Notes under the pieces: generated by a model
Told to the model about the DNA's origin: nothing
Database searches by the model: none
Seen by the model: only the letters and a program-made list of their open reading frames with translations
Source of the DNA: a virus
Strand: one strand, 5' to 3'
Virus record (IMG/VR): IMGVR_UViG_3300005673_000003
Coordinates: 1-64,000 of that record
DNA length: 64,000 bases
Translations under genes and position numbers: made by a program
Shown: positions 665-64,000 of the stretch, one piece after another
Numbering within the stretch: position 1 is the stretch's first letter
How the letters are laid out: each line of letters opens with the position of its first letter

Positions 665-703
665 GCATCAATAAATCAATCAATTATCCCGGAGGATGAC
701 CCA

Positions 704-1081
704 ATGAGTGACGCAGTAGTTACGGTTACGCTTCCTGTCGGTCAGATGGCTTGGATTAAAAAAGAGCTGGAGAGCGGAGAGATAGAGAACCTGTTTCATG
801 TCAAGCTACCCGGGCCTGGGCAGCACTGGCAGCACTACACCAATATTCCGGCGATCGCTCTACTGGGAGGAATTCCAGCGATGCAAGTACAAGCTGGAGA
901 CACGCCCCAAGCTAAGGACGCAACCAGAGCTACCCTGCAAGACTCAGCAAGGGTAGCAAGCTGGTCGGATGGCTGGTTTGCCTACCTTGCGCTTTTGAAG
1001 CAAGGCTGGAAGCTGATCAGTGAAAAAGAAGTATTAGCCGAAATGCATCAGGCTCTATGCAGTAAAACTGCTAACCTATGA
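704..1081 (+). CDS. Hypothetical phage protein
   Basis: 12-mer repeat plus GGAGG RBS upstream; terminator downstream. Confidence 0.75.
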   Translation: MSDAVVTVTLPVGQMAWIKKELESGEIENLFHVKLPGPGQHWQHYTNIPAIALLGGIPAMQVQAGDTPQAKDATRATLQDSARVASWSDGWFAYLALLKQGWKLISEKEVLAEMHQALCSKTANL

Positions 1082-1108
1082 AAACTATGCTTACAACTAA
1101 CACACCAG

Positions 1109-1134
1109 AAGGGGCCAGCACTGGCTCCTTTTTT
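1109..1134 (+). terminator. Intrinsic terminator
   Basis: AAGGGGCCAG-CA-CTGGCTCCTT stem followed by a T run. Confidence 0.7.
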
Positions 1135-1195
1135 ATTGTCGGTTGCATGAGACAAAAATATGATGTAATGATATAGGAATAGTTCGGGAGAAGGT

Positions 1196-1642
1196 ATGAC
1201 AAACGAGAAGAGGCAGGGGAGCGCTATCTCGCCTCCGGTATGCCCGGAGTGCAAAATCCCAATGATGAGGAATGGTCAGCGGAATGGGGGCATTCAGTAT
1301 CGCTGCACCTGCGGCAAGACCACCACTGTGCGGGTGGTGGAGCGGAAGCGTCCTGGCCGCAAACCCGTTTACCCTCCTGGGTACGACCGCAAGGCAGCAT
1401 GGAGGGAGAGGCAGGGGCAGCTAAACCCAGCGGCTCTGCCTGAATTTATCGGCATAGCGCGGCTGGTTAATCCTCCAGAGTTTTGGAGCGGCGAGGGCTT
1501 TGTATCTGATATAAAGCAGATCAGACCCTACCGCTCCATCCAAGCAGGAAAGGCAGCTATCCATCGCTTGCCGCAAGGGCTGACCAAACTGAAGTTGATC
1601 AGGGTGGTTCGGAGTGATTGGAGTTATTCAATAATCAATTGA
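1196..1642 (+). CDS. Zn-ribbon DNA-binding protein
   Basis: CPEC...YRCTCGK ribbon followed by basic RKRPGRKP motif. Confidence 0.6.
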   Translation: MTNEKRQGSAISPPVCPECKIPMMRNGQRNGGIQYRCTCGKTTTVRVVERKRPGRKPVYPPGYDRKAAWRERQGQLNPAALPEFIGIARLVNPPEFWSGEGFVSDIKQIRPYRSIQAGKAAIHRLPQGLTKLKLIRVVRSDWSYSIIN

Positions 1643-1652
1643 TTAACCAGTT

Positions 1653-2273
1653 ATGAATCAGTTATCGTTACTGCCGTCAGAAGAGGCTCCCGTAGAACCT
1701 TGGAGGAAATGGAGGACTGTAGAGCAGGAAGCCGCTTTTCAGAATCATCTTGCAGGTATTCGTCAGCAAGCGCAAGAGATTCTGGCGATCGCTCATGAGC
1801 AGAACCCTGGCAAGCATTGGGATCGGCTTACCGAAGTCAGGGGAGACGAATTCTCGAACGCTTGCCGGGAATATCACCGTAGGCAGGGCACCTTAATGGA
1901 TACCCTGCCCCTAACTCCCCCCATATCGCTATCCAAACCGTCGCGACCTTATATTCCCTGGTCACTAGAACGCAAGCAACGGGAGCGGGTCAAGAAGTTG
2001 CTGCAACGAATCAGCAAGCGTTACTCTCTGATCGATTTATTCGTTGATGCTGTTCAGGATGAGCTGCTGAGTAATCCCCAGTATTTCGGTGTCTGCCCAT
2101 TGCCGGGAAGCGCTGATAGCTGCAAGATAGTTTTAAGAAATCTGGTGCAAGAAACCGCGATCGCTTATGAGCAGCAACTGCGATTAACTGAGCATCTCCC
2201 AGTAGAACCGCTAGCTATCCCCCTGGCGATTAAACAGCCCGAATATGCTTTGCAGGAAATGCAAACTAAATAG
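1653..2273 (+). CDS. Hypothetical phage protein
   Basis: 206-aa ORF preceded by the 12-mer repeat. Confidence 0.7.
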   Translation: MNQLSLLPSEEAPVEPWRKWRTVEQEAAFQNHLAGIRQQAQEILAIAHEQNPGKHWDRLTEVRGDEFSNACREYHRRQGTLMDTLPLTPPISLSKPSRPYIPWSLERKQRERVKKLLQRISKRYSLIDLFVDAVQDELLSNPQYFGVCPLPGSADSCKIVLRNLVQETAIAYEQQLRLTEHLPVEPLAIPLAIKQPEYALQEMQTK

Positions 2274-2401: not shown

Positions 2402-4604
2402 ATGCACCCGAATTACATCAGAAAGGTCACGCCAAGAAAAGCGATGACCGAGAAAAACTTTGCTGCTATTGCAAGAGCGGTGATTGTGACCGAGAGCCGC
2501 ATTATATCTGTCCTAAAGTCAGGAGTGCCAAAGAGTTCTCAGCAGCTCCGGCACTATTGCTTCCAATGCTGCATCGAGCTGAAGGAAGAGCGGCGGGAGG
2601 AGTTTGAAACGCTAATGGGATACACGCTGGAAGATGGGGATGTACCAGCCATTGATCAGCCAAGAAGATCCCATTCCCATGCTTATGATGTAGCTCCAGC
2701 TCTCGATTATGACGGGATTCGCAAATTCCTGGAAGAGGCAGTAGAGCGGTATCAAACCTCTGCCCCCACTGCTGCTCAGCACTGCGATTGGCTCTATCGC
2801 AGACTTGCCGATCAGCCCAAAAACGTAACCTATTACGAACTGGAGAATATCATCAAGCTCAAGATGGATGGGAGCTGGAAAAACCCCCACCAGGCCGCAA
2901 ATCTCGTTTACCATCTACGGAATGATCTCAAGATGGGGCATTCCGTCACCCTACCATTCGATTTCTAATCAAATAATCAATCAATTTAATTTTGGAGGCT
3001 AATTATGATCGTTGGCGAATACCTGGAACATCATCCCGAAGCAGATAAGACAGCTCTGCTGCTCATCGATGAGCATCGCAAGGGTGATGAACCCTACTAC
3101 CTGGCAGAGCTAAAATTCTTTTTCCCAAAGATTGGAACTTTCACTATTACCCTTCGCAAGCAATCCAGTTCGCTGGATGGTGCCCGTCATTATGCTGTCG
3201 GGGTGCTGAAAGAGATTCGTAATGTCGGATTAGTTGACTGGCTGAATGCAGATATAGAGGAAGGCAAGCAAAAAGGAAGGAGTGCTGGATAATGCAACCT
3301 TTCTGCGCGTTTCAGTACGAAAAATTCTCCTATGCCCAGCTCCGTAGAGCTTACTTCGAGCTTGCCAAAGTGCAGAAGTCAAACGGGAAAGAGTTTACAT
3401 TCGGGCATGGAATTGGCTTTAATCGCTCAGAGAGAAGACTTAAGCGCGGTGCAGTTACGGTGCTGAAGCAGGGGCCGATCAAGTCAATCAGCGCTGGCGC
3501 GATCGTATTCATGCAAACGGCCTCCCCAGGAAGCAAGTCCTACATAGTAGGGCAGTTCAAATCATTTATGCCGGGAACTATCCATGACCGGATCTTCACG
3601 ACTGCCCCTGATTATGCATCCTCTGCAATCATGCGAATCCTATTCAGGATGCACCAGGATGGGAGCCATCCATCCTTAAACTTTTACCCAGATAGATCCT
3701 GGAAAGCTATCTCCCTCCACTAGGATGAGGGGCATAGAGAAGCAGTTAGCGCTTGTAAATCAATCAATTAATCGTTGGAGACATCATGAAAGACTTAAGT
3801 GGGTTACTAGAAGCAGAATGCAATACCGAGCCTGATTACCAGGAGCAGGAAGAGTGCAGGCCCATCCTCCCTGGCGATATTATCGAGCTTCAGATAGGCG
3901 ATGAAGTTGTCGAAGTCCAGTTATGCTCCTATGTTGCATCCGATGCAAATCTGGATATTCTTAGACGGTTAGCCGCTGTTGATATTCCGGTCGCGGAAGA
4001 GCATCGGGAAGTGTACGAGCGGCATTATCGAGGGTTAAAAGAAGATGGCATAGACATCTTTTCTAGTTACGCCTGCTGGCTATTCCTGAAGCGTAAAGCT
4101 GCGCTAGATGGGATAGCGAAGGAAAATGAAGAGCTTATATCCCAGGCTTCCCAAGTTGCTTAACTTAATACCTGTTCCCTATTGTAATCAAGTCAATAAT
4201 CAATCAATTCAAGGTACAGAGCTATGATGACTATGCGCAATTATCCAGAAGCGATCGCTACCGCTGCTGAAAAAGTAGCTGAGATAGATCTGGCAATCAC
4301 TCAGGCGAAAAGACTGCTTCACGAAATCGAGTCGGAGATAGATCAAGAAATAGCTTGCGAATCCAATCTGAAAAACGAATTACAGCGTAAAGCAGCCAGA
4401 AGCATAGCGATAGCAGCTCATCCAGATCATCGCAAGCTACTGCAAGCAATGGATAATAACACCTTCAATAAAGCAGTTGCAGCCGCTGAACTAGAGCGAT
4501 TGCGAGGTGAATTCGCTATCCTCAAACTGGAGGCAAAGGAACGTATCTCAGACAAGATGCGTTCTCTTGAAAACGGTGATCTGGTAGCTGTTAGCTTGAC
4601 CTGA
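2402..4604 (+). other. Operon of five hypothetical CDS (2402-2968, 3005-3292, 3292-3723, 3786-4163, 4224-4604 coiled-coil)
   Basis: Tightly packed, same strand, four preceded by the 12-mer repeat. Confidence 0.75.
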
Positions 4605-4623: not shown

Positions 4624-4680
4624 ATCAGTAGAAATACGGATACTCTTCCCGCCTTATTGGGACATAATTGTGATGTAAGC
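4624..4680 (+). promoter_or_regulatory. Bipartite phage promoter, copy 2
   Basis: ATCAGTA-GAAA-TACGGAT, 17 nt, GGGACATAATTGTGATGTAAG, then the 12-mer repeat at 4684. Confidence 0.8.
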
Positions 4681-4706
4681 AGCAATCAATCAATTACGTC
4701 GCAATC

Positions 4707-7514
4707 ATGAGAGATCTTAGAGACTACGGATTTACAAGGTTTTCAGTTCCCAGCGAAGTAGAAGCTTTTGAGGATGCTTGCTATCAAGCTGGTCGAGGAT
4801 GGGCTAAGACGGGAAATAAAAAGCTCCCCCGCATCGCATCGGTAGACGGCAAGCAGGTGCCTATCCTGCAATCAATCAGCCTCAACTCCAGAGCTTTCGT
4901 CCAAGGATGGAAGGATGGAGGGAGAGGGCAATAATTAATCAGTTAGCGGCTCCTGAGTGGGGCCGCAAGGAGTTCAAATATGCTGACCTACATTTATCTG
5001 CACTGCAATAAGACGGATGCTTCTATCCCATTATTCGAGGGGGAGCAGCCCCCATTCATTCCAGAGGTGGGAGATAATCTATCGGTGGTTATCGCTGGCG
5101 AGGATGGACAGCCTTACGAATGCAAGTATCGAGTTCACCAGCGAACCTATGATTACCAGAACCGGACGATTACGCTTTACAGTGACTGGATGAACCACGG
5201 AGAGTACTTACTCCGATATAGCAATCAATGCACCCCAATGGAAACGCAAGCCATGAGGGAGTGTGCCAATGCTTAGACCCGCAACTGTAGCAATTCCTCG
5301 CCTGGGGAATCTGGCTGGGGAAGTTCCCAAATCGATCGCAGACGCAAGGCTGCTTATCCTATCTTTGGAGCGCGAGATCCGCTCGATAGAAATTGATTTG
5401 ATCAATTCCGGCAGTCGTCTTGAGTTTGATTTTCAAGGGGATGACTTGCGCTGGTCGAATTGGGAGGCAGAGAGACGCAAGCAAGCGCTCAATGCTTTGC
5501 AGCAAAAGACGGCATTAGAAGGCTGGCTGGTACTGCAAGAGTGTAAGGGCAGTAATCAGCAACAGCAAAGCATTCCGAATGATTCAAAGATTCTTGCTAT
5601 CCGCAAATCAACCACCAGATCAAAACAGGAATCAAAACAGGAAGAGGAGATGATTCAGGAACTCAAGGTAGAACTAGCAGCACTCAGAGCTGAGGTAGCT
5701 GCATTGAAGCGGCAGGTAGAGAGCCAGGTAGAGAGCCAGGGTAAAGTTAAAAAGCAGGTTGATAACCTATCAAATATCCTGGAAACCCTGATCCGCCAAT
5801 TCACTGACTACTTTCATAAGGAAACCGTCAGAAATTCAACTCGCTGGGTGCTGTCAACCTTTCCTGGGTACATCCGCTCCCTTCGCAAACATAGAGGCGA
5901 AGATGCAGATAATACCAGCTTTAACGAGCAATCAAATCTGTTTAATTTCCTGATAGCTCAGGGACATAACCCCCCATTCGCAACTGAAGTCTTGCAAAAC
6001 GGAGCAAAGCTTATCAAGCAGGCCAGCGTCCAGTCGAGCGTAAATCAATCAATTAATCCAAGGTAAGCAACTATGTTCGCAACGCTAGAAGATATAGGGC
6101 TTCTCCGCACTATCGAAGGTGCTGCTAAAGTCCGGTCCATCAATCGCGGCCCTCATAAAAAGCCAGTCCTCCTGCCTTCTACCATTCGCGGGATTAGCCA
6201 TTGGCAGGGGGATGAGGAGGCTATTTGCATCTGGACAACCACAGATAGCTTGCAGGTTTACGAGTTGCCGGAGCTGGCTCCATCGGAGATAGAAGCTATC
6301 CAGGAGTTCATTAAGGGCAGATTGCAGGATACTCCCCAGCAATCGATCGCTGGCACTCGCAACCGATTGGAATTAGTCAATAAACGGGTAATCGTGCAAA
6401 CTGCCGCCTTAGCTCCCAGATGTACAGGGAAGCTCTGGGGTCATGCCAAAGAGTATCACTACGATGATCTAGGGGATTCATGGTTGGTCGGTTTTGATAA
6501 CGGGGCCAAGCATTATATCCCGGCAAATATCATCTATCTGGACGACTCGCCTACTCCCACTCGACATCTATCAGTAGTCAGGTAATCATCATGAAACGAA
6601 TATTATTCAATCGGTTTTTCATCAGGATTGACTGGTCAACAGAAGACCTTTGGTGGGATGTGATGGATGACGGACATAAGCAAACCTATCTATTCGATGT
6701 GAGTACCGTCAGCCGCAAGATGGATGGGAAATCATACCAAGGTTTGCAAATCATCATGGGGAAGCTTGCTGTCAGGCTTGCTGATCTCAATAGCATCAAA
6801 CCTGCTTCAGAAATCAATCAATTAACGGAGATAGAAAAGCATGGACAAAGTACTGATAAGGTTCCCCATGAAGAGGGCGATCAACAGGCTGCTACGCTTG
6901 ATTCTCCCCAGTTATGATCTTGCTGGACGAGAGCTTGATGAACTCATCAAAGCACTAAGGAAAGCAAAAGAAAAGAAACAGATCAATCAATTATCAAGGG
7001 AGTAGGGTGTATGCCTTTTATTATTCAGCTTGAAGCTACAAACCCAGATAACGGGGATCTCCTCATTACATACGTAAGCAGGGGTTATTTTAACGGGTAT
7101 CCAGCCTGTATTCCCGGCAAGCCAGGGCAGCGGCCAGCTTTCTGGAAAACAGGAAACGGAGCTACGGGTGCCCTATATAGAAGGGCACCCAGTTTCGCTT
7201 TCGATAGGGGATTGGATAAATCAGACGCAACCCTTCTGGATTGGCTCAACTTCATTGGCGGCCATCAATACACTGGCAAGGCTTTGGAGGTTGATCACGA
7301 TTTCATCATCCCTGGCGAGGTATTACCTCAATTACAGGAACTGCAAGCGATAAAACTGGTTCGTCGATTAAAAGCAGATATTCGCCGTCTGCAATTGCAA
7401 CGCCAAAGAATCGAGCAGCAAATCAATGCTAAGCAGGAAAAACTCGTAATAGCAGAGCAGGAGGTAGAGAGAGAACGGATAAGCAAGATCAGAACTATTG
7501 ATGCAATCGCTTAA
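4707..7514 (+). other. Operon of hypothetical CDS (4707-4934, 4980-5276, 5263-6066 coiled-coil, 6073-6585, 6591-6917, 7011-7514)
   Basis: Co-directional overlapping or abutting ORFs with RBS-like sites and 12-mer repeats. Confidence 0.72.
6841..7005 (+). CDS. Small protein (54 aa, MDKVLIRFPM...), absent from the ORF track
   Basis: 12-mer at 6812 and GGAG RBS precede the ATG; fills the gap before 7011. Confidence 0.6.
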   Translation: MDKVLIRFPMKRAINRLLRLILPSYDLAGRELDELIKALRKAKEKKQINQLSRE

Positions 7515-7540
7515 TCAATCAATTATCAAAGGAGCAGATT

Positions 7541-8047
7541 ATGGTACCAGATATTATCTATTCGGGAGGCCAGACTGGGGCAGACCGGGCCGCATTGGAT
7601 GCCGCTGGATGCCTGCGGATACCGACTGGGGGATGGGCACCAAAGGGATACCGGACGGAGAACGGGAATGAGCCAATCCTTAAAGCTTATGGACTAAAGG
7701 AAACCGAGAGCCGCGAATACCCTCCCAGGACTCGCCTAAACGCTGAGCAGTCCGATGGTACTGCATGGTTCGGGAATACCAATTCTCGTGGCTATGAACT
7801 CACCCTAAGAGCTGCTCGGAGTGCAGGGAAGCATTTCATAGCTAACCCATCCCCGACAGCTCTTAGAGCTTGGGTGGAAGAGCATGGCATCAAGGTTCTC
7901 AATGTAGCTGGCAACCGGGCCAGCATGAATCCTGATGCTTACGGGCAAACGTTTGAGTGTATCTGTGCCGCATTTCGGGATGAGGTTGTTAAGCATCGAT
8001 TTGAAAACTGGGAAGCGATCGCAACTGTCAAGAAATCAATCAATTAA
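7541..8047 (+). CDS. SLOG-superfamily protein (circularly permuted YpsA / putative Mo-carrier family)
   Basis: SGGQTGADRAALDAA, GGWAPKG, YPPRTRLNAEQSDGT, VLNVAGNRAS motifs. Confidence 0.85.
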   Translation: MVPDIIYSGGQTGADRAALDAAGCLRIPTGGWAPKGYRTENGNEPILKAYGLKETESREYPPRTRLNAEQSDGTAWFGNTNSRGYELTLRAARSAGKHFIANPSPTALRAWVEEHGIKVLNVAGNRASMNPDAYGQTFECICAAFRDEVVKHRFENWEAIATVKKSIN

Positions 8048-8061: not shown

Positions 8062-8673
8062 ATGGTGACGCTAAGCGAGTATCAAACCCTGATCAAAGGT
8101 TGGCATGATCACAACTTCCCGATTGCTCGACCAGGCAAAGCGGAACGGGTGATCTTAAAAATAGGGGAAGAGCTAGGGGAATTGAATCGAGCTTATATCA
8201 ATAAGTTCGACGGCATCAAAGGAACCAAAGCTCATTGGGTGAATAAGGCTTGCGATGCGATCGGGGACATCATCCTGGCTACTTTGGTTTACTGCAACGA
8301 GGGCGGCTACAGTATCAATGAGTGCTTAACTTTATCCTGGGATGAGCTACGGGATGAGGAGAAGCTCCGGCAGGTATGGGATGAGGAGTTAAAGGCATCA
8401 AGCGGGAGATTGCCAAGCTCACCGGAGGAGATTCTAATCAGAGCACTTTGCAGCGCTGCATCAATCGGCCATGTCTACTATGCGTTGCGGGATGACAATT
8501 GGGAAGGCTGGGCTGATGCAACCAAGCTTATGATCTTACGGCTGATCATCCTCCTGGCTCTCTACTGCCTACAAGCTGGATTCGACATTGAGCGTTGCAT
8601 TGCAGACTCCTGGGAGGAGGTTAAGGGTAGGGATTTTAGCAGGTCCAGCAGTACTGAAAATCAATCCTCCTAA
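8062..8673 (+). CDS. MazG-like all-alpha NTP pyrophosphohydrolase with a degenerate second repeat
   Basis: KIGEELGEL...DAIGDI motif; second half repeats the YC..G..I..C...SW.E segment. Confidence 0.8.
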   Translation: MVTLSEYQTLIKGWHDHNFPIARPGKAERVILKIGEELGELNRAYINKFDGIKGTKAHWVNKACDAIGDIILATLVYCNEGGYSINECLTLSWDELRDEEKLRQVWDEELKASSGRLPSSPEEILIRALCSAASIGHVYYALRDDNWEGWADATKLMILRLIILLALYCLQAGFDIERCIADSWEEVKGRDFSRSSSTENQSS

Positions 8674-8962: not shown

Positions 8963-9430
8963 TTAGTTTAGTAGCTGGGTTAAATGTCTGGGCCTTGCCC
9001 TTTCAGCTTTGACCTCGCCAATGTAATGCTTGCCGCGAAAATCGCATCGTAGATCCTCGGATAAGGGTACTTCAATGGATGCTCTTTTGATTTCTGCAAA
9101 CTTCACCTTAACGATGTCATGCTCTGAGAATCCGATGGGTGCAATCTTGGAATCCTCTAATTTGGTCAGTCGGATTGCCTCCTGCTTAGCGCGATCGATA
9201 TTTGCTTTGGTTGCCTTCAGTCGTAGGGAGATTCGCCGCTGCTTCCTGCCGCTACCATCCCCCATATCGAAGTAGCCGCGAAGCGATAGCCTACGGTTTT
9301 TTATATCAATCATGAACTGGGATCCGGATTGCTTCAGCTCTCTGTTTAGCTGCTGTTTGTAATCCTGTAAATAATCGATTGATTCTAGCTCAGCATCTTG
9401 GATGGCATCTGAAGCGTCCATAGAAAACAT
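8963..9430 (-). CDS. Stand-alone integrase arm-type DNA-binding-domain protein
   Basis: NRRLSLRGYF...GRKQRRISL...ANIDRAKQEAIRL resembles the N-terminal domain of cyanobacterial tyrosine integrases; no catalytic domain. Confidence 0.5.
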   Translation of the reverse strand: MFSMDASDAIQDAELESIDYLQDYKQQLNRELKQSGSQFMIDIKNRRLSLRGYFDMGDGSGRKQRRISLRLKATKANIDRAKQEAIRLTKLEDSKIAPIGFSEHDIVKVKFAEIKRASIEVPLSEDLRCDFRGKHYIGEVKAERARPRHLTQLLN

Positions 9431-9556
9431 TATTAATTTCTACAATCTTTCTTGATTCTAGATCCCGGTAATCCGCTATGCCTATACCTTTCGGGATTAT
9501 ATTCAAATCTGATGCAAGATCATTTTAGCAATCTGCGATAAGATTTAATTGCAAAG

Positions 9557-9615
9557 CAAAACCCCACTCAACTTTCCGGGCCGAATGGGGTTTTAGCTAA
9601 TCACTATCATCTTAT
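9557..9615 (-). ncRNA. Putative counter-transcribed antisense RNA over the leader of 9614
   Basis: Minus-strand TTGTCA-N18-TACACT promoter with extended TG (9651-9622) and an AAAACCCCA...TGGGGTTTT hairpin at 9557-9594. Confidence 0.5.
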
Positions 9616-12500: not shown

Positions 12501-12516
12501 CGATGGAGATCAATCA

Positions 12517-54965: not shown

Positions 54966-55021
54966 CTTACATCACTATTATGTCTCGCACTCTTGAAAGG
55001 GGGATCCGTATTTCTACGGAT
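54966..55021 (-). promoter_or_regulatory. Bipartite phage promoter, copy 4
   Basis: Perfect ATCCGTA-N4-TACGGAT (55004-55021), 17 nt, GAGACATAATAGTGATGTAAG on the minus strand. Confidence 0.82.
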
Positions 55022-55050
55022 ATTTGCAGAAGCCGCAGAAATCAATCAAT

Positions 55051-55548
55051 TTATAGATCCTTCTTTCGGATTGCTGGGATTCCGGCATACAATCCGTTCG
55101 GAGCGGTGGAGTGGGTAACTACGGCTCCTGCCGCAATCACGCATCCAGAAGCTATCTGCACTCCAGGGAGGATGGCAGCTCCCGCGCATATCCAGCTTCC
55201 CTGCCCAATCACTACAGATTTAAGGATTAAGCCGCCCAGCTTGACTCGGCAAGCGCTGCCGCCAATCTCATGCGAAGTAGTAAGGATCCGGACTCCTGGC
55301 CCCAATCTGGCGCAATCTTCCAGGATGATTGACGCTCCATTATCCAGAAAGCAATCCCGGTTTAGATAGGATTTATGCCCCATGTAAATATTGCTTAAAT
55401 CAGGATGAGCGAAGGTGCAGCGAGGGGAGATATATGCATCTTCTTCCAGATGCATCCCGCCAAATAATCGATAGATTATTGCCCTCTCCTCGCTGGATAA
55501 CAGTTCTGACCCAGCGATCGCGTTAATTAGGAATGATTTGAATTTCAT
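55051..55548 (-). CDS. Hexapeptide-repeat (LbH) sugar O-acetyltransferase
   Basis: LGPGVRILTTSH, VVIGQGSWICAGAAILPGVQIASGCVIAAGAVVT, LYAGIPA. Confidence 0.9.
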   Translation of the reverse strand: MKFKSFLINAIAGSELLSSEERAIIYRLFGGMHLEEDAYISPRCTFAHPDLSNIYMGHKSYLNRDCFLDNGASIILEDCARLGPGVRILTTSHEIGGSACRVKLGGLILKSVVIGQGSWICAGAAILPGVQIASGCVIAAGAVVTHSTAPNGLYAGIPAIRKKDL

Positions 55549-56258: not shown

Positions 56259-59200
56259 TTAGTACAGAGAACCAGAGAGGCTATTTCCGTACTGGCTTAC
56301 CAGAATATCCGGGCCTAAGTTGATGCTCAGTTCTTCGATAATTCCGGTTGGGACGTAGCTGATTGCAATTTGCAATTTACCGTTGATGATGTCCACCAGC
56401 CCGATCGACTGATTAGCGTCAGTGATTACGCCAGTACCCACGCTGGGGCCGCTGATCTCAACGGCTTGTTGAAAGCTTAGATACTGGGTGAAAACCCCTT
56501 TGGCATACTCTTTGCGTGCCCATGCATTGAGTACCATGATGATTTGCTCGACCGTGTAAGGCTGAGCAGGCTTAAACATCTGCTCCAGCAACTCCCGCGC
56601 TTCCAGGAATACCCGAACGTAATTGGTCTGAATCCGCCGAATATGCAGAAAATCGTAGAGAGGAGAAATCGAGGTAGCCCGACCACCCCAGACAACGCAA
56701 TTGCCATACATCATTTTGATTGGCTGAATGCCTGCCAGGTTAAGTACCGCTTCATCCTGGGGTTTCACATCAATCGGCAGCTTAATCACTCGCGCCATCA
56801 ACGCATCGACCCCGGCAAAGGGAACATGGTAGCCTTGCGCGACATTACTGCGTGCTGCTTCTCCACCAGCGATTTCACCGCTCAGGGAAATGAATCTTTC
56901 ACCATTTCCGAGAGGGTTACTGATATAGCCATAACTTGGGAAAGCGATTGATTGGAAATCATTGCGGCCCAAGTATTGATTTACGAATACTTCAGCCGTA
57001 GAAGCGCTGTAGTAGTTAGAGGGCACTTCTGCTCGATACTCGAATGCCCGTTGCTCCGCATAGAAGCTGCCAGCTTTCTGGACAACGGAATCAGATACAC
57101 CAGGGGTCATAGTGCGGACTAATCCGAGGTTTTTACCCCACACGGCATTCTCGATGATATTGGCATCAACATCAAAGTATTTCGTGTAGTAGTAAGGAAT
57201 GATTCCTCCAAGATCCCCATCGTATCCCTTGGAAAGGAATTGCGGGAACTGCACCAGGAATCGCTTGCCAACCTGGGTTGCAACTCTGAGATCATAGCCG
57301 CGAGAGACTTCCAGGTATCCGGTTTTCTTGGTTTTAGTCAACGCTGGCAGGTTTGTAGTAAACGCAGATTCCAGCACCAGCGAGGTATTGCTAACAACTG
57401 AGCGAATCTTACGGGCCTGGTTATTAACTGGGTCATACAGGTAATCGCCAGCTTTGAGCGCTGCTTGGAAGTTGGTGGAAGTTCCAGTTACATTTACGCC
57501 AGTAGAGGAGATGGTACCTTGCAAACCAACTGGAGCCTGGTAGCCAGTCACCCGGAAATAGGAGCGTGCTACCTGATAGGGATTCGGGTAGAGTAAATTA
57601 CCCATCGCTCCCGCATAATCAAAATCCCCGACTGTGTATAGGCGGGTCGCAGTTAATGCCAGGACGATACCAGAACCGTTAGCGGGTCGCACATCTGCGG
57701 ACGAATGGGTGGTGTAGGCAGAAGTCCACAGGTTGGTGGTGGTAATCCACTTCTGGTAGTTCATGCTGCCAGTCCGGTAGGCGATATTTTTGCCGTCCGA
57801 ATTGACGTAGGTATCAACAAATAAGCCTTTAGGATCTGACGGATCTAAACTTACGTCAGGAGCCTGATAAACCAGGGAGCCATTAAAGCGGACGTTGATC
57901 GAGAAGTGAGTCGAAGGGTATTTGGTACCCTGCCCAACGTCGATCGATAGCCCAGCATTGCCAACCTGGGGAAGGCTAACCTTAGCGCTCAGTGATTGCT
58001 TGGTAATTTGAGCGTCAGTGAAGTCATAAGAGAAAGCTTTCTCGATTTCGATCGAGGTCGCATCGGTGATTGTCACCACTCGAACCGCATTCCCTGCTCG
58101 ATTGGGATCTACGATGTAGGAAACGCCAGCCTGCAACTCGGTCGTAAACTGGGTAGTTGTCCCAGTTACAGTCAAATTATCTTGCGAGAGCTGAGCAGCA
58201 GTTAGAGCTTCCGTGAAGCCAGAGGTTAGCTTCATGGAGGTTTCGCTGGTGATGCTGGCGATCGTTCGGCCTTGACGTACTCCACCAATCATGGCGTAGA
58301 CGGTTTGACCGACCGCAAGCTCGGTTTGAAATTTGGAGCCGACCGCACCAGTAACCGTGACGTTATCGCGCTCAATGGTAACGCTAGCAGCATCCAAAGC
58401 GAATGGAGCATCCACGGTCATCGTGGTGTCAGAGGTAACGGAGGTGACTACTCGTGCCTCCCCGTTGTAGTAAACGTTATGACCTACTTCAAACTCGGTC
58501 AGGAAGGTAGTTCCAACCCCGGTGATTACACGATCTCGCAGAGTCGCGGTGCCAGTTGCATCGACGGTTAGCTCAAAGCTAGCAGTACCAGTCAGGTTGC
58601 TGTATCGGGTGTAACTGGCAGTACCTGTCAAGGTGGTGGGGCCAGAGACATTATCAGCAATCAAGCTATACTGAGCGGCCAGCGTAAATACCACTTCACC
58701 AGAAACCGGATCGGCTTCGGTGTTGCCAACGATTTCATAGGTCTTGCCAGTATCATTGCTGAATTCAGCAATGCCTCCGACAAACTCATTAGAGAGCGTT
58801 CCGGGAGCTGAGAGGGTAAAGGTATTGATAGTAGCGAAGATGATCGGGCGATAGCTGATTTCATTCGCTTGACCACCCCAGCGGCCTTCATTTGCTGCCT
58901 CGATTTTCAGGCAGTCTGTACCCAAAGAGTTCTTGAGGATGACGGATGATTTTCTTGCTTTGCCGTCCAGGTCTAAGCGCACTAACCAGAGCTGGCCTGC
59001 TCCTCCGCCTGTTTTGTAATAGCCGTCGATCGCATCAGGTAGGAGCTGGCTACCATCCTGGAATAAGTGCCAGGTTTGGTCGCGAGGATCCCCACAAATA
59101 TCTTGATACTCAGCGTAGTTATTAAATGGAATGGGAAGCCCCATTGGGCCACGCTGTAGCACCCCAAACATCATTGTGGTGCCGTATCGGGGATCCTGCA

Positions 59201-59288
59201 TTGCATTGAATCCGGCACGCTCGACCACCCGTACACCGGGAGCACCCTTCGGCACGCCAAATACTCGGACGTTATCTTGAATTGCCAT
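56259..59288 (-). CDS. Contractile tail sheath protein with inserted repeat domains
   Basis: PGVRVVE...RGPMG N-terminus; LNLAGIQPI...VVWGGRAT...FLHIRR C-terminus; internal VTG..T.F..EL..G repeats. Confidence 0.92.
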   Translation of the reverse strand: MAIQDNVRVFGVPKGAPGVRVVERAGFNAMQDPRYGTTMMFGVLQRGPMGLPIPFNNYAEYQDICGDPRDQTWHLFQDGSQLLPDAIDGYYKTGGGAGQLWLVRLDLDGKARKSSVILKNSLGTDCLKIEAANEGRWGGQANEISYRPIIFATINTFTLSAPGTLSNEFVGGIAEFSNDTGKTYEIVGNTEADPVSGEVVFTLAAQYSLIADNVSGPTTLTGTASYTRYSNLTGTASFELTVDATGTATLRDRVITGVGTTFLTEFEVGHNVYYNGEARVVTSVTSDTTMTVDAPFALDAASVTIERDNVTVTGAVGSKFQTELAVGQTVYAMIGGVRQGRTIASITSETSMKLTSGFTEALTAAQLSQDNLTVTGTTTQFTTELQAGVSYIVDPNRAGNAVRVVTITDATSIEIEKAFSYDFTDAQITKQSLSAKVSLPQVGNAGLSIDVGQGTKYPSTHFSINVRFNGSLVYQAPDVSLDPSDPKGLFVDTYVNSDGKNIAYRTGSMNYQKWITTTNLWTSAYTTHSSADVRPANGSGIVLALTATRLYTVGDFDYAGAMGNLLYPNPYQVARSYFRVTGYQAPVGLQGTISSTGVNVTGTSTNFQAALKAGDYLYDPVNNQARKIRSVVSNTSLVLESAFTTNLPALTKTKKTGYLEVSRGYDLRVATQVGKRFLVQFPQFLSKGYDGDLGGIIPYYYTKYFDVDANIIENAVWGKNLGLVRTMTPGVSDSVVQKAGSFYAEQRAFEYRAEVPSNYYSASTAEVFVNQYLGRNDFQSIAFPSYGYISNPLGNGERFISLSGEIAGGEAARSNVAQGYHVPFAGVDALMARVIKLPIDVKPQDEAVLNLAGIQPIKMMYGNCVVWGGRATSISPLYDFLHIRRIQTNYVRVFLEARELLEQMFKPAQPYTVEQIIMVLNAWARKEYAKGVFTQYLSFQQAVEISGPSVGTGVITDANQSIGLVDIINGKLQIAISYVPTGIIEELSINLGPDILVSQYGNSLSGSLY

Positions 59289-59344
59289 TTCTGCCTTCTT
59301 CCTTGAATTAATTGATTGATTAGCGGCTTAGTAGAGTCAGCGGA

Positions 59345-59869
59345 TTAGCTAGCCTCTGCCAGCATGAGCTTCCCGTTGCCTAAAAAGCCTTGTTCACGAA
59401 TGATCAACACCCGCTCGTAAAGCGTGCGTCTCCCTGAGCCTGGAGCGAATTCCGTAATTTGCAAGCCGTTTTCTGCTTCGACTTTGCTTAATCCTTCATG
59501 ATCCAATTCCAGGAGCGGATCATCCGAATCAATCATGATTGCCCCTTTCACCAGTACTTGAGAGTAGGGCAGGGTAGGCAAGTAAGCTTCGATTACTTGC
59601 TGCTCGTCAAGCGTAAATAGCCCGGGTTGCGTCGTGATCCAGAGGTCTGGCGCATCTGGATCTCCGCGCTCTCCCTGGAAATCCTCTGGAATGGGAACCT
59701 GAAGCGGCTCCCGACCGTACCGTAGAGATAGATATTGCTTCATAAAATCCCCCAAAAACGCCAAAAGGAGCCGCCCATAAATGGGTGACTCCCGGTTAAT
59801 CAATCGATTTTCTGCAATGGCTACCTGGCGGCTCTCAAATAAGCCATATCCGAGCGCTGTAAGTAGCAT
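59345..59869 (-). CDS. Hypothetical protein (probable start MKQYLSL)
   Basis: ORF upstream of the sheath gene; 12-mer at 59798. Confidence 0.55.
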   Translation of the reverse strand: MLLTALGYGLFESRQVAIAENRLINRESPIYGRLLLAFLGDFMKQYLSLRYGREPLQVPIPEDFQGERGDPDAPDLWITTQPGLFTLDEQQVIEAYLPTLPYSQVLVKGAIMIDSDDPLLELDHEGLSKVEAENGLQITEFAPGSGRRTLYERVLIIREQGFLGNGKLMLAEAS

Positions 59870-59957: not shown

Positions 59958-60275
59958 GTTAATCAATCTGTTTCTCGGTAAGCAATCAAGCAGGCAAATC
60001 AATCAATTCTCTAATGCAACCAGTGTCTAGCTTGGCTTTTTCCGCTTCTAATCGAAGTGCCAGCTAAGCTGCTCCGATGTACCTAAAAAACGGCATTAAA
60101 GAAGAATTTACCAATCGCATGACCATAAAATTAATGTTAACTCAAAGAATCAAGAGCTGCAATCAAGGTTCCCCAGCCCTCTTAAAGGCAGCAATCGCCA
60201 GAATAATTCCAGCGACAAAGCAAAAAGATACTACAGCAAACAGAATCCATCCAAATACGGTTAGCAGGATAGACA

Positions 60276-61364
60276 TTATTTGGTAACTCCTATAAATAAA
60301 GGTTTCATTTGAGCGCTATCCATTCCGATGATATTTTGAGCGATCGCTTCTTGCGGCCTGCCCGGAATGGAAACCAGCGTGAGAGTGAAGGTAGCAGATT
60401 GCAGTTGCCCTGATTCCAAATTATCGCCCAAAGAGCTAGATCGCTCCCAGTCAAGATCCTGGCTGTAGCGAACACCGTAGCGAATACCAAAGGGGGGAGC
60501 ATCAACTGCTCCATACTGATCCACCTTTGAGATGATCGAAGTAGCAATGCTTTCCACATCATCTACCGAATAGCCAACTACAGTTACAGAGAACCGCTGG
60601 TCGAAAGCTCGATTGAAGCTGAGCAGCTTGGATTGACTGGGGGAAATCCGAATAGAATCAACCTCGCTAATCTGATGATGGTTTTCCGTCTCCTGCAATT
60701 GCAGGAGGACACAGGGAATATCCTGCAATTGGTAAAACTCGTTATTACCGATCGAGAGGAAAGGTACTTGGTAGTCAATACCAGCCAGGTATCTCCCGTC
60801 AAATTGAGTTGTATTCCTGCTCAAAACTAAATCAGGATTAATCCCCTCAACTTCATCATCAGGAGCCTCTAGCCAGCGATTTAAGATGATTGGAGGAGTG
60901 CTTAGGAACTGAGCTATCCCAAAATTAAAGAGGTAGCTGAGCGGGTTATTGTAGAGGGAGGAGCACCCAAACTTGATTTCCTTCAGGAGCGGCGAGATAT
61001 TATCCAGCCGTTGCAGCTTTAAGCGAATCTTGAGGGGGAGCTTCCAGGAGGGCAGGCCAGCTCTGATCTGATCTGGAGTATTGTAGGGAGGATTGGCACC
61101 AGTAGGTTGCTGCGCCCAAGCCGAGCCATTCCAGATCCAAGGGGTTCCAGATTGGTCGAGCAGCGCTACAGAAATACCCCTTTCCGAGGGCTGAACCTCA
61201 AATCCAGCATAACTATCGAGCAACTTAGCCTCAAAGGATTGCAGGTCGATCATGCCGGAGTTAGCGCTCCCCCTGAGCCGGATAGTATCGGCATCTCTGA
61301 TTACTCCCTCAAAGCGACTGCATTGCCAGGGCAGGATAGGTAGTGTATGAATCCAGAAGCTCAT
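60276..61364 (-). CDS. Putative tail completion / structural protein
   Basis: Between the neck-like gene and the sheath; C-terminal PCVLLQL...FSVTVVG...ATFTLTL pattern. Confidence 0.5.
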   Translation of the reverse strand: MSFWIHTLPILPWQCSRFEGVIRDADTIRLRGSANSGMIDLQSFEAKLLDSYAGFEVQPSERGISVALLDQSGTPWIWNGSAWAQQPTGANPPYNTPDQIRAGLPSWKLPLKIRLKLQRLDNISPLLKEIKFGCSSLYNNPLSYLFNFGIAQFLSTPPIILNRWLEAPDDEVEGINPDLVLSRNTTQFDGRYLAGIDYQVPFLSIGNNEFYQLQDIPCVLLQLQETENHHQISEVDSIRISPSQSKLLSFNRAFDQRFSVTVVGYSVDDVESIATSIISKVDQYGAVDAPPFGIRYGVRYSQDLDWERSSSLGDNLESGQLQSATFTLTLVSIPGRPQEAIAQNIIGMDSAQMKPLFIGVTK

Positions 61365-61870
61365 AGTTTACCCCTCATGATTTGCTTTAATTTTGCTCGA
61401 CTCCTAGAGCGCACTTGATTCCAGGATTTACGCCAGAAGCGTCTTGCTGGAATGCGAATTACTTTCGTCTTAGGATTCAAGTGGATGCCGCGATAATGCA
61501 GCCACCCGCGCATCTTGTCAGTGACTCGGATAGTTGCGCCCCTGTCTTGCACTTTAGCAATCATGGAGGGCTTCCCGTCAGGAATTCCTACGGTAGAAAT
61601 TGATTGATTTTTGGTGCGATGATGGGTTTTCTGGATATGGTCACGGATGCCTGAACCATCCGGCTCACCCTCATGAGAATAGATTTGATGGGTTGCGGTA
61701 GATAGAAGTGGAGCTGCACCCCTGCCCTGCTTTTCCAGGGTATCTTGCAACGTATCGTACATATCCCTCGCGCTATTCTCTGCCCACCGCTGCCCTGCAA
61801 CCCGCATCCGCTTCATATTCTGGAGCTTAACGAAAAGCATATCGAGTTCTGACTTAACCCTAAAATCCAT
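61361..61870 (-). CDS. Virion morphogenesis / neck protein (Mu gpG / HK97 gp10-like)
   Basis: IAKVQDRGATIRVTDKMR...IRIPARRFWR. Confidence 0.7.
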   Translation of the reverse strand: MDFRVKSELDMLFVKLQNMKRMRVAGQRWAENSARDMYDTLQDTLEKQGRGAAPLLSTATHQIYSHEGEPDGSGIRDHIQKTHHRTKNQSISTVGIPDGKPSMIAKVQDRGATIRVTDKMRGWLHYRGIHLNPKTKVIRIPARRFWRKSWNQVRSRSRAKLKQIMRGKL

Positions 61871-61879
61871 GGCTTGCCT

Positions 61880-62434
61880 CTACTTAATTTTTGAAGTCAT
61901 CCCGATTTGATGGGCATAGGCAACCGCGATCGCGTCTGCCGCATCATCAGGTTGAGGGATTTCTGGCAGTCCATAAGTGACCATCACGGCATACTGGACA
62001 TCCTCCTTCTCAGCTCTACCATTGCCAGTCATGCCCTTCTTTACCTGGGACTGGTGCAGGTAGGCAGGAATTAACCCCTTCTGGCCCAGCGACATTTCGA
62101 CGATTCCCAGCGCTTTTAGAACCTTGGCAGCATTGTAATTATCACGGTCAAAAAACGGATGCTCTATGCAAACCGCATCCGGCTTGAAAGTATCGCAGAG
62201 CGTGTAAATATCATTCTGAATCTGCTCTAATCGCTGCCAGGGTGCGACTTTGCGCTTCTCTTTTTTCTTGCCATTGAGTACCGTTACAGTGGCGGGAACA
62301 GTGGCGGGAGTAGTGATCACGCCATACTCTAGGATTCGATTCCCTTGAATAATGCCAAAACCCATTGTTGCGTAGCCCACATCTAATCCCAGAATAATCC
62401 TATTGTCGCCCATATCCTTAAAGCTGTCCTTCAA
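61880..62434 (-). CDS. ruvC: Holliday junction resolvase RuvC
   Basis: ILGLDVG, VCIEHPFF, VKKGMTGNGRAEKEDV, PDDAADAIAVA. Confidence 0.93.
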   Translation of the reverse strand: MKDSFKDMGDNRIILGLDVGYATMGFGIIQGNRILEYGVITTPATVPATVTVLNGKKKEKRKVAPWQRLEQIQNDIYTLCDTFKPDAVCIEHPFFDRDNYNAAKVLKALGIVEMSLGQKGLIPAYLHQSQVKKGMTGNGRAEKEDVQYAVMVTYGLPEIPQPDDAADAIAVAYAHQIGMTSKIK

Positions 62435-62518
62435 AGCTGTCCTTCGCTTTCTCGAACTGAAAAGGATTGTAGAAGTCTACAATCCCTATACCCCTCTTTT
62501 GAATTAATTGATTGATTT

Positions 62519-63628
62519 TTACTCAGCTTCTATTGGGATGCCTTGAAACTGCTCTCTGGGGTCTACGGCAACCCTAAAATCACTGAGATACAACTCATAC
62601 TTGGTTTCCGCGTGCAGGTTTGCCTTAACCCATAGCTCCAGAAAGCCTCGATTAAGGCTCCCTCTGCGCTCCTGGATAGCATCTTGCACCGCTTCAGGTA
62701 AAACCAGGGTAGGGATAAAGACCAGTGTATCGGGCTTCCAATCCTGGATGATAACGCCAATCGAGTGATCGCTGACGATGCTCACCCGAACTCTCACGTC
62801 GAACATCGTCCGATTTGCATCCAGCTCACTTAAATCCTTAAGGGTCAGCGCTTTCTTAAGCATACTCTCGAAAGCGAGTGACTCGCCGCAGGGAAGCTTT
62901 TTCACGAAGGCATACAGGGAGGATTCTGGATTCTGAAAATCAGGATGAGCCATAGCCGCATACTTTTGCTGGCGATAGCCGTACCAAAAGCGCGAGACTG
63001 TCATAAGAGCTGCTTTCAGCTTGACTACCTCTTCTTGCTGCTCGATTGGAGTGCTAGGGGCGCATGTACCTGCACCAGCAGCGTGATACTGGAAAGCAGC
63101 TCCATGCAATCTTAGGAGGGCAAGGCAAAGCGCGATCGCTGGATTATCCAGATGAAACCCATAGAAGCGTTGATGCTCGCCTGGGTTTTCTGGATCTGGA
63201 TGCTCAAGGATTGCCCAGGTTCCCTGCTTATCTGAATGAATATGCAAAGATAAATCCAATCCGAATAAGTTTTGCCGCTCCCACTCCAGAATCCTCATGC
63301 AGGCATCAAAATTCTGATGCAATTTAGGGATAGGGGAAATTGATTGATTCAGCCAATCTGCGGCCAGGGGAACAGCTACGCTTACTTCTTCTAGAAAACC
63401 GCTGCCAAGCATTCGCTGGATATCATCCGATTGCGGATCTAATAGCCAGCGGCAAACAGGTGCATCTCCAGAGCTGTTCACTCTGGCATACCATCTCCAG
63501 CCAAAGATATCGCGACAAACTAATGCATCTAGCTCTCTGGGGGATTGAATGATTTGAGGTATTTTTTCCATGACTTGAATTTTGCAAAATTGATTGATTA
63601 TTGACTTCAGGGTTTTAGATCGATGCAC
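62519..63628 (-). CDS. Hypothetical protein with an N-terminal phage ABA-sandwich-like domain
   Basis: RELDALVCRDIFGW...PKLHQNFDACMRILE...PAIALCLALL. Confidence 0.5.
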   Translation of the reverse strand: MHRSKTLKSIINQFCKIQVMEKIPQIIQSPRELDALVCRDIFGWRWYARVNSSGDAPVCRWLLDPQSDDIQRMLGSGFLEEVSVAVPLAADWLNQSISPIPKLHQNFDACMRILEWERQNLFGLDLSLHIHSDKQGTWAILEHPDPENPGEHQRFYGFHLDNPAIALCLALLRLHGAAFQYHAAGAGTCAPSTPIEQQEEVVKLKAALMTVSRFWYGYRQQKYAAMAHPDFQNPESSLYAFVKKLPCGESLAFESMLKKALTLKDLSELDANRTMFDVRVRVSIVSDHSIGVIIQDWKPDTLVFIPTLVLPEAVQDAIQERRGSLNRGFLELWVKANLHAETKYELYLSDFRVAVDPREQFQGIPIEAE

Positions 63629-63630
63629 TC

Positions 63631-63927
63631 TTAAGGGGTCAGGATGAAGCTGAGTTCTTTATCTGAGACTGGTTGCCCATACTGAGCCGCAATATCTCGA
63701 AGCTTGATGATTGAGTAAATCATAACCGCTCTATCTACCGGACTCTGACTCCCACTAGCCAGCACTGTAGCCAGAGTAGCCATCCCATTTCGGCAGGCAG
63801 CACCATCAAAATTGAGTCGTTCCATCCGCGCCCCTACTTCCAATAGGAGCGCAGTGTTAGCTAATTCCTGAGAGTAATCGAATTCTTGAGCGGCTTGCAT
63901 AATTCGGATTCCTTTGTTGACAATCAA
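63631..63927 (-). CDS. Hypothetical protein
   Basis: Probable start MQAAQEF after an AAGGA RBS and the 12-mer at 63922. Confidence 0.55.
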   Translation of the reverse strand: MIVNKGIRIMQAAQEFDYSQELANTALLLEVGARMERLNFDGAACRNGMATLATVLASGSQSPVDRAVMIYSIIKLRDIAAQYGQPVSDKELSFILTP

Positions 63928-64000
63928 TTGATTTTAAGGCAGCTATTTAATCAGAGTAGCTGCCAGGTTAATTAGCGGGAAGTGAAGTACCCGACGCTCA

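Follow-up and report, generated by a model that had tools for sequence, protein, structure and literature searches.

The DNA analysed here, the first 64 kb of a single 148,728-bp virus record (IMG/VR record IMGVR_UViG_3300005673_000003, positions 1 to 64,000), which will be referred to as the window, belongs to a phage that repeats one 12-mer, AATCAATC(A/G)ATT, throughout its genome and carries a copy of it ahead of about one third of all its genes. The best explanation found, which we put forward tentatively, is that the 12-mer is a strand-specific mRNA leader element that would act on translation initiation via a sequence-specific factor. Strand specificity, a register shared with the Shine-Dalgarno sequence, a transcribed position, a 4-nucleotide (nt)-periodic and G-free form predicted to be unpaired and exact conservation together argue for recognition of one strand, most simply as an mRNA leader.

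The consensus AATYRATYRATT is matched 66 times in the window, whereas 100 dinucleotide-preserving shuffles yielded 0.13 matches on average and never more than 1. This agrees with the roughly 65 copies, far beyond chance, reported in a preliminary description of this DNA, and the copies quoted there at 674, 16195, 40152, 41243, 46910 and 63922 are all present. Over the whole record there are 121 matches, at a rather uniform density of 2-12 copies per 10 kb. Of these, 103 (692 per Mb) represent the asymmetric word AATCAATC(A/G)ATT in forward or reverse-complement form, with A at position 9 in 71 and G in 32 exact copies, where approximately 0.1-0.6 copies of an exact 12-mer would be expected. 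Conservation is sharp, as besides the 103 exact copies just 27 other one-mismatch variants were detected. The word had been described as a self-complementary palindrome; it is instead an asymmetric 4-nt direct repeat without G, AATC-AATC-AATT, which often runs on at both sides (CAAT-AATC-AATC-AATT-AATC), and the perfect palindrome AATCAATTGATT occurs in just 4 copies. A symmetric site in duplex DNA is disfavoured by the direct repeat and by the scarcity of palindromes. Exact conservation over the full 12 nt implies that recognition is specific and goes beyond that of an A/U-rich "standby" tract. Outside the nearest ~4 nt on the upstream side and 4-9 nt on the downstream side of the 12-mer, the flanks hold no information and no further repeat. 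Spacing of the copies along the DNA is just weakly regular (coefficient of variation 0.80) with gaps of up to 7.2 kb, the longest motif-free stretches being located at 63.6-68.4 kb and 126.5-130.3 kb. In the papers searched, the literal 12-mer was met solely in primers or microsatellites.

Position of the 12-mer relative to genes, promoters and other genomes

Relative to the local genes, 81 exact copies are in sense orientation, 15 are antisense and 7 are ambiguous (binomial p = 4e-12). Slightly more than half of them (52/103) terminate within 0-30 nt ahead of a same-strand called start, compared to 5.2 ± 2.3 for random positions and 5 for the same sites after flipping the strand, which bears out the earlier observation of a sense-strand reading near gene starts. 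These counts use called starts, very small open reading frames (ORFs) being outside the gene list, and a further few copies precede ORFs below the size of that list. The orientation switches at each small gene island, for example at 20.6-21.8, 48.6-51.2, 88-90.5 and 119.7 kb, and thus tracks transcription, not replication. Replication-polar words such as Chi and KOPS differ in this respect, as their orientation follows replication with one or two switches per replicon.

The distance from the end of the 12-mer to the start codon is mostly 10-21 nt with a median of 15.5 nt, and a Shine-Dalgarno-like tetramer usually starts 1-5 nt after the 12-mer (typically 2-5 nt, median 4 nt). This register is set by the downstream start: the gap to the upstream stop varies from -2 to 412 nt, whereas the downstream distance is steady at 10-20 nt, and several copies form part of the final codons of the preceding gene, holding the register with the next start. 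The 12-mer is present in 63% of the co-directional gaps of 26-60 nt and in 1 of 27 overlapping (coupled) junctions. The possibility that an upstream stop codon is built into the motif (T + AA) was rejected, since this holds at only about 6-8 junctions. RNA folding predicted a higher unpaired probability for the motif region than for the corresponding region of genes without the motif (0.65 versus 0.47, p = 1e-7).

The gene encoding the large terminase subunit TerL (14151-16193, minus strand) departs from this arrangement. Its copy (16195-16206, minus strand) abuts the start, as had been noted before, the ATG (16191-16193) following after a 1-nt spacer that leaves no space for a Shine-Dalgarno sequence. 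This ATG is taken as the true start because the alignment to a 59% identical homologue begins at residue 1 in both proteins. The record's own gene call picks an internal start (606 aa), and homology favours 680 aa.

At least eight exact copies (4684, 20687, 51149, 71671, 74334, 75764, 105142 and 119708) start 10-16 nt after a -10 hexamer, and three one-mismatch copies are likewise located 10-16 nt after the -10 box of TTGACA/TAnnnT host-type promoters. The preliminary description was thus right in placing copies directly after conserved promoters. Assuming that transcription starts about 7 nt past the -10 box, the 12-mer would lie at approximately +3 to +21 of the message. Its position behind host-type promoters indicates that the 12-mer is transcribed as a leader, and for a word in such a transcribed position a role as the promoter itself is unlikely. 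None of the copies extends into a -35 or -10 box. The conserved sequence ATGTAAGCAGC precedes many of the promoter-linked copies, six of which belong to an eight-member promoter family, AAAAAGATTGATAGAT(G/A)TTGACATTTT, with near-identical members on the minus strand between 66.1 and 134.1 kb of the genome (e.g., L146:7660-7740). In the family promoter at ~71.7 kb, a perfect 10-bp inverted repeat (AAGATTGATA / TATCAATCTT) surrounds the -35 box and resembles a classical operator; this repeat and the 12-mer have an ATCAATC core in common. Pfam searches covering nearly all ORFs of at least 60 aa yielded no phage RNA polymerase or sigma factor, and no ORF with a DxDGD motif was found; divergent factors are possible.

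A survey of 405 cyanobacterial genomes detected 0-38 copies of the 12-mer each, at most about 5 per Mb compared to 692 per Mb in the phage, so that the motif withstood the comparison with host density proposed in the preliminary description. The reversed control word is present in 0-9 copies per genome, the 12-mer being about 10 times commoner in the cyanobacterial chromosomes. In the outlier with 38 copies, the excess derives from one tandem coding repeat, and none of 20 inspected host copies is followed by a Shine-Dalgarno sequence and ATG. Some cyanobacterial copies adjoin AAAATCT-type simple repeats, and the general excess is probably compositional. The comparison with relatives, also proposed earlier, gave 0-1 copy in each of six terminase relatives (L001-L003 and L227-L229; 39-59% identity), which are without a leader word of their own. 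Among 5.8 billion proteins, the best TerL homologue is 59% identical. A near relative was not matched in the phage collection, and neither a TerL pattern nor the promoter-plus-motif 21-mer had a match in IMG/VR. A 16-mer scan of IMG/VR gave single matches only, among the matches listed, and the motif-plus-Shine-Dalgarno pattern retrieved 76 contigs from JGI metagenomes, none of them motif-rich. Judged by these comparisons, the 12-mer appears specific to the phage lineage and is no host signature in the 405 cyanobacterial genomes.

A proposed leader element and the competing explanations

The 12-mer is placed in 5′ untranslated or intercistronic RNA, after host-type promoters and between genes of co-directional arrays. 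In the mechanism we propose, the G-free, poorly paired RNA word (AAUC-AAUC-AAUU) would be read by a sequence-specific factor, which might be a phage protein, a phage small RNA or a host single-strand RNA binder. By setting ribosome loading on more than 50 phage genes, this factor would turn the 12-mer into a phage-private add-on to the ribosome-binding site. Among the roles listed in the preliminary description, which ranged from a partition or antitermination site to a recombination site, a translation or RNA signal fits best. As the 12-mer is separate from the Shine-Dalgarno sequence, its effect would be separable from ribosome pairing. Should the 12-mer prove to be a translation or RNA signal that has its own reader, phages would run a private expression code atop that of the host, and the word would provide a compact orthogonal control element for cyanobacterial engineering.

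A more far-reaching version, which we regard as speculative and rather improbable, takes the 12-mer as a private 12-nt "address" beside the ribosome-binding site with a dedicated reader, conferring privileged loading in infection or acting as a genome-wide translational switch. Possible readers are a phage protein or small RNA, or else an RNA-binding protein captured from the host that has a 4-nt register, for example one with tandem KH domains; reversed copies at gene ends might base-pair with the leaders. Such an address would add to the bacterial translation-initiation code a second layer that is virus-specific and spans the genome.

Several observations weigh against the leader element. 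About 20 sense copies are located within ORFs, including 8 in a single giant gene, and 15 exact copies are antisense, 11 of which lie at or directly past stop codons; these two groups are the main facts that a leader does not explain. The predicted accessibility of the Shine-Dalgarno sequence is no better in genes with the motif, complementarity to 16S rRNA is absent (shuffled words pair with two Oscillatoriales 16S rRNAs at least as well as the 12-mer does), and the Pfam searches revealed no RNA binder of the KH, S1, Sm or cold-shock type. Furthermore, an operator at the DNA level would yield an equal strand bias and intergenic placement. In the giant gene (4,281-codon ORF 23344-36189, minus strand), the 12-mer is read in two frames, as NQSI or as INQF/INRL, and the copies sit at the edges of Pro/Ala-rich linkers, with the 12 bases identical and the adjacent residues diverged. 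Identical bases amid diverged residues in two frames point to a constraint at the nucleotide level, and some pairs of copies in this gene are clear internal duplications. As stated in the preliminary description, antisense copies sometimes supply stop codons: those at 40152, 41243 and 46910 hold the TGA of the ORFs ending at 40154, 41245 and 46912. Others directly precede terminator hairpins (78606 and 85599).

Regarding a reader, the candidates named in the preliminary description received no support: ORFs 8963-9430 and 21735-22151 are without matches in Pfam or PHROG, 17878-18624 has just a sub-threshold HTH_17 match, and 22170-22829 encodes a ParB-like protein of the kind found next to terminases. 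The reverse word AATTGATTGATT directly precedes a strong intrinsic terminator (L147:1566-1700, minus strand, genome ~85.57-85.70 kb) and borders a 650-nt gene-free region adjoining the replication genes. The segment at ~85.57-85.70 kb folds somewhat better than shuffled sequences (z = -2.8) and could encode a candidate small RNA complementary to the leaders. Close by, two tandem one-mismatch copies (AATCAATCAATA twice; L147:2215-2243, genome ~86.22-86.24 kb) lead into the first gene of the plus-strand replication block that includes DnaB.

The main rival, a stoperator-like DNA operator, is possible, though we consider it on the doubtful side. A phage repressor, binding as a monomer or head-to-tail, would occupy more than 100 asymmetric 12-bp sites and block polymerase in an orientation-dependent manner in a silent prophage or plasmid-prophage. 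An asymmetric site, far more than 20 copies, location mostly in short intergenic spaces and orientation with transcription are published hallmarks of such sites (PMC9283540). Copies directly downstream of promoters could serve as operators, and the sense copies within genes, eight of them in a 12.8-kb gene, would suit roadblocks along long transcription units. Indeed, the in-gene copies, and perhaps the reversed ones, are better explained by roadblocks than by a leader. Plasmid-like lysogeny is possible since ParA, ParB-N, DnaB and DnaG are encoded, and the ATCAATC core recurs in the inverted repeat around the -35 box of the promoter family. Nevertheless, a roadblock needs no tight register with the Shine-Dalgarno sequence and the start, which is kept even in long spacers, and no copy lies over a promoter box. 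In duplex recognition, a direct-repeat period of 4 bp would be unusual, neither an integrase nor a homologue of a repressor was recognised, and lysogeny is conjecture. If an analogue of stoperators were true, genome-wide elongation roadblocks would have evolved independently outside the mycobacteriophages.

It is unlikely that the 12-mer is an RNA-processing signal, at which host RNase E or a phage endoribonuclease would cut polycistronic transcripts in or beside the word to give each gene its own leader and stability. The minimal consensus of RNase E is R-N-cut-W-U-U. The 3′ half of the 12-mer, C-R-A-U-U-W, fits this consensus, with R being the sole tolerated variation (A/G at position 9), and the site is found between cistrons in sense orientation and is predicted to be single-stranded. 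Hairpins ahead of several copies (13414, 49284 and 81608) could shield the upstream product. However, sense copies within coding regions, eight in one gene, would expose those messages to cleavage, RNase E sites do not require 12 exact bases, and no nuclease candidate was found.

Even less probable is a gene-start promoter element read by the host RNA polymerase together with an unrecognised phage factor, in the manner of T4 late TATAAATA or Mimivirus AAAATTGA. An oriented, lineage-specific word ahead of many genes in all modules, also within co-directional arrays, would be expected of such an element. In at least eight cassettes, though, the 12-mer is downstream of a good host-type promoter, and with about 16 nt to the ATG the transcript would begin at or inside the Shine-Dalgarno sequence. 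The word also bears little likeness to a -10 box, and, as noted above, neither an RNA polymerase or sigma factor (Pfam) nor a DxDGD ORF was recovered.

We consider it very unlikely that the word marks DNA rearrangements, either as the cassette boundary of a recombinase or as an IS200/605-type target, the copies in the giant gene being fossil fused junctions. Such a role could account for copies in either orientation at gene boundaries and at module/linker boundaries of the giant gene; the phage carries three IsrB genes and one TnpB gene, and the complement of the 12-mer holds TTGAT twice. The strong strand bias and fixed Shine-Dalgarno register are unexpected of a recombination site, no IsrB or TnpB gene directly abuts a copy, the flanks are without further repeat, and the relatives found are too distant for mapping breakpoints. 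Finally, a compositional signature inherited from the host, similar to the HIP1 palindrome, is largely refuted and hardly credible: it could call on the excess over the reversed control word in cyanobacterial genomes, but the top density in these genomes (about 5 per Mb) is far lower than that of the phage and its excess in the top genome is one tandem coding repeat, the inspected host copies are away from starts, the word is not palindromic, and ordinary HIP1 is also present in the phage.

Copies in the window and gene content of the phage

Three promoter-leader cassettes are located on the plus strand of the window. The first (4663-4695) combines the -10 box CATAAT (4663-4668), ATGTAAGCAGC and the motif (4684-4695), 11 nt ahead of ORF 4707-4934. 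The second (20647-20698) consists of TTGACA (20647-20652), an 18-nt spacer, TATAAA (20671-20676), 10 nt and the motif (20687-20698), which is 15 nt ahead of ORF 20714-21112. In the third (51128-51160), CATAAT (51128-51133) is followed after 15 nt by the motif (51149-51160) and then by GGAG and the ATG of ORF 51177-51338.

Further leader copies on the plus strand were found at 674-685 (18 nt ahead of the ATG of ORF 704-1081), 2378-2389 (12 nt ahead of ORF 2402-2968 and 104 nt past the upstream stop), 2975-2986 (18 nt, ORF 3005-3292), 3758-3769 (16 nt, ORF 3786-4163), 4198-4209 (14 nt, ORF 4224-4604), 12791-12802 (16 nt, ORF 12819-13004), 48625-48636 (17 nt, ORF 48654-49229) and 50087-50098 (11 nt, ORF 50110-50424). 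G variants lead ORF 13451-13711 (13414-13425, a distance of 25 nt, with a hairpin before the copy) and ORF 21332-21832 (21322-21333, with an ATG 16 nt downstream), and a hairpin also precedes the copy at 49284-49295, 15 nt ahead of ORF 49311-49643. In the same plus-strand gene island, a variant (49751) and an exact copy (49799) share the stretch 49751-49810 ahead of the small ORF 49853-50014. Four plus-strand leaders reach into the preceding gene: 6043-6054 in the last codons of ORF 5263-6066 (18 nt ahead of ORF 6073-6585), 7513-7524 with a 2-nt overlap with the upstream stop (16 nt, ORF 7541-8047), 8034-8045 in the end of ORF 7541-8047 (16 nt, ORF 8062-8673) and 50423-50434 overlapping the upstream stop (23 nt, ORF 50458-51099). 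A copy in a divergent intergenic region (59997-60008, plus strand), preceded by GTAAGCAATCAAG, is probably the leader of a plus-strand transcript with ORF 60077-60286.

Leader copies on the minus strand are present at 14083-14094 (followed by GGAGG and the ATG of ORF 13898-14071, 57 aa), 18979-18990 (12 nt ahead of ORF 18634-18966), 19183-19194 (12 nt, ORF 19003-19170), 36550-36561 (16 nt ahead of an ATG of ORF 36279-36581), 36810-36821 (10 nt, ORF 36560-36799), 44872-44883 (34 nt, ORF 44334-44837), 54124-54135 (18 nt ahead of an ATG of ORF 53410-54162) and 63588-63599 (16 nt ahead of an ATG of ORF 62519-63628). At two minus-strand sites a variant and an exact copy overlap, namely at 59306-59321, 21 nt ahead of the 1,009-codon ORF 56259-59288, and at 62502-62517 between ORFs 62519-63628 and 61880-62434.

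Sense copies within ORFs comprise 6812-6823 (plus strand) in ORF 6591-6917, where an alternative small ORF (6841-7005) begins 17 nt on, and, on the minus strand, 42358-42369 in ORF 42112-44025, 61598-61609 in ORF 61361-61870 and 63338-63349 in ORF 62519-63628. Three others, also on the minus strand, are located at or close to the 5′ end of their ORF: 9373-9384 (ORF 8963-9430), 17438-17449 (ORF 17042-17455) and 23291-23302 (ORF 22832-23314, with an ATG 1 nt after the copy). The giant gene contains, between 24710 and 33661 on the minus strand, eight exact sense copies (24710, 26440, 27856, 29866, 30779, 32194, 33467 and 33650) and one variant (31330).

Antisense copies lie within ORF 22832-23314 (minus strand; copy 23009-23020, plus), ORF 39350-40153 (plus; copy 39828-39839, minus), ORF 40709-41248 (minus; copy 40874-40885, plus) and ORF 59345-59869 (minus; copy 59798-59809, plus). 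Five plus-strand copies are found at gene ends. At the convergent junction 40152-40163, the copy overlaps the TAA of ORF 39350-40153 (plus) and its complement provides the TGA of ORF 40154-40594 (minus). Reversed copies supply the TGA of ORF 41245-41463 at a minus-strand gene junction (41243-41254, the next ATG following after 1 nt) and the stop of ORF 46912-47268, minus strand (46910-46921). Another reversed copy (53220-53231) is directly past a TAA stop on the minus strand, and one (55040-55051) is at the junction of the minus-strand ORFs 55051-55548 and 54653-55045. The palindromic variant AATCAATTGATT at 1633-1644 is 8 nt ahead of ORF 1653-2273; further palindromic variants are located at 21846-21857, at 39061-39072 within ORF 38926-39402 and at 63922-63933 at the 5′ end of ORF 63631-63927. 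Degenerate variants are present at 17548-17559 (AATTAATCGATT), 46227-46238 (AATCGATCAATT) and 51412-51423.

The phage encodes a GpA-type large terminase, portal, baseplate and tail genes, the tape-measure-like 4,281-codon ORF, DnaB, DnaG, ParA, a ParB-N protein and a Dam-class methyltransferase, and carries two DpdA-type transglycosylase genes, three IsrB genes and one TnpB gene. The giant ORF is built of repeated modules (e.g., GILKGIG-DT-K...NQSI) divided by the Pro/Ala-rich linkers. Its homologue in relative L227 exceeds 3,662 codons and has a PhageMin_Tail domain; there, a weak peptide-coding repeat, AGAATCAATT, encodes a recurring ESI peptide. The ParB-like protein (PHROG 723; window 22170-22829, minus strand) is located between the giant gene and the terminase region, and in L227 a 216-aa gene occupies this place, directly ahead of TerL. 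The GTP cyclohydrolase I (FolE) gene (L149:824-2491, minus strand, genome 124,824-126,491) is interrupted by a LAGLIDADG intein. FolE and the two DpdA/DUF6884 genes point to 7-deazaguanine modification of the phage DNA, as far as gene content can tell.

A HEARO (omega) RNA (L149:4757-4991, minus strand) adjoins one of the three IsrB (RRXRR) genes, and another IsrB gene is located at 19298-20341 (minus strand) in the window. This RNA is the sole Rfam match, and no tRNAs were found in the phage. Based on gene size and the HEARO match, we take the motif-free stretches 63.6-68.4 and 126.5-130.3 kb to be sites of mobile genes. The preliminary description had the motif absent from recent acquisitions. 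Its absence stands, as the DpdA block (9385-12790) and the IsrB gene at 19298-20341 are without the motif; recent acquisition is not reflected in base composition or codon usage. The more general idea that motif-less genes are recent imports was rejected, since GC content, GC content at third codon positions (GC3) and codon usage showed no difference between genes with and without the motif.

The genome contains 68 HIP1 octamers (GCGATCGC), the terminase relatives are HIP1-rich contigs, and the phage IsrB is closest to the IsrBs of Tychonema and Microcoleus. Taken together, these features indicate that a filamentous cyanobacterium is most likely the host. No integrase was recognised in the genome, which encodes a recombination directionality factor (RDF)-like protein in addition to ParA, ParB-N, DnaB and DnaG; the phage may persist as a plasmid-prophage. 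The assembly of the likely source run has it in two contigs (19,710 and 128,760 bases) joining at window position 69/70, which suggests that the record ends are arbitrary and the genome is circular or permuted. Four public DNA runs from one bioreactor-sludge study contain the same phage with zero sequence differences over 20 kb, and no RNA run was listed among the public runs that contain it.

Comparison with known systems

HIP1, of which the preliminary description had suspected a phage counterpart, is a true palindrome and a property of host genomes, spread over coding sequence irrespective of strand or start codons. Both are over-represented short words in a cyanobacterial system, but the suggestion fails, as the 12-mer is asymmetric, linked to strand and starts and not abundant in the 405 cyanobacterial genomes, and the phage has its HIP1 sites separately. 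The T4 late word and that of Mimivirus are conserved oriented words upstream of the transcript start that depend on virus-encoded transcription proteins. They resemble the 12-mer in being one conserved oriented word before a large share of genes, whereas the 12-mer is inside the transcribed leader of host-type promoters. Upstream translational enhancers, such as the T7 gene 10 epsilon, A/U-rich S1 sites and the CAA-rich omega leader of tobacco mosaic virus, are degenerate or pair with 16S rRNA. With these the 12-mer shares a G-poor, unstructured tract 5′ of the Shine-Dalgarno sequence; unlike them, it is fixed at 12 positions and without 16S complementarity.

The preliminary description had known of no comparable system, yet there are two close analogies. 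Cluster A stoperators (L5 gp71; PMC9283540) resemble the 12-mer in being asymmetric 12-13-mers that occur more than 20 times across the genome, in short intergenic spaces, and whose orientation goes with transcription. In L5, however, the repressor is known and the early promoter is itself overlapped by the same site, whereas no copy of the 12-mer touches a promoter box, no Pfam or PHROG match in the phage points to a two-domain repressor of the stoperator type, and the 12-mer, unlike stoperators, stays in fixed register relative to the ribosome-binding site.

The closest described phenomenon is that of the start-associated sequences (SAS) of Cluster K mycobacteriophages, described in 2011 by Pope et al. 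(PMC3203893), the function of which was still untested as of 2025 in a survey of 188 genomes (PMC12699233). SAS and the 12-mer are both short asymmetric words repeated in one lineage in near-uniform orientation directly upstream of starts, and for both a role in translation initiation has been proposed. SAS are essentially absent from the host genome and from other phages; the 12-mer reaches at most about 5 copies per Mb in the 405 cyanobacterial genomes and 0-1 copy in six terminase relatives, with single chance matches among those listed for IMG/VR and in the JGI metagenomes. Nevertheless, the SAS consensus GGGATAGGAGCCC is unrelated in sequence and includes the core of the Shine-Dalgarno sequence at 3-7 bp from the start, whereas the 12-mer is G-free and upstream of the Shine-Dalgarno sequence, 10-21 nt from the start. 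SAS also have an inverted-repeat extension (ESAS), which is not seen for the 12-mer, and occur in 11-19 copies in the non-structural arm only, compared to 103 exact copies, about 10 times more, in all modules including the giant structural gene. The pattern therefore has precedents: it is not a member of the SAS family and is not categorically new, but with more than 100 letter-perfect copies, about one third of the genes served and a cyanophage instead of an actinophage as carrier, it represents the most extreme case found.

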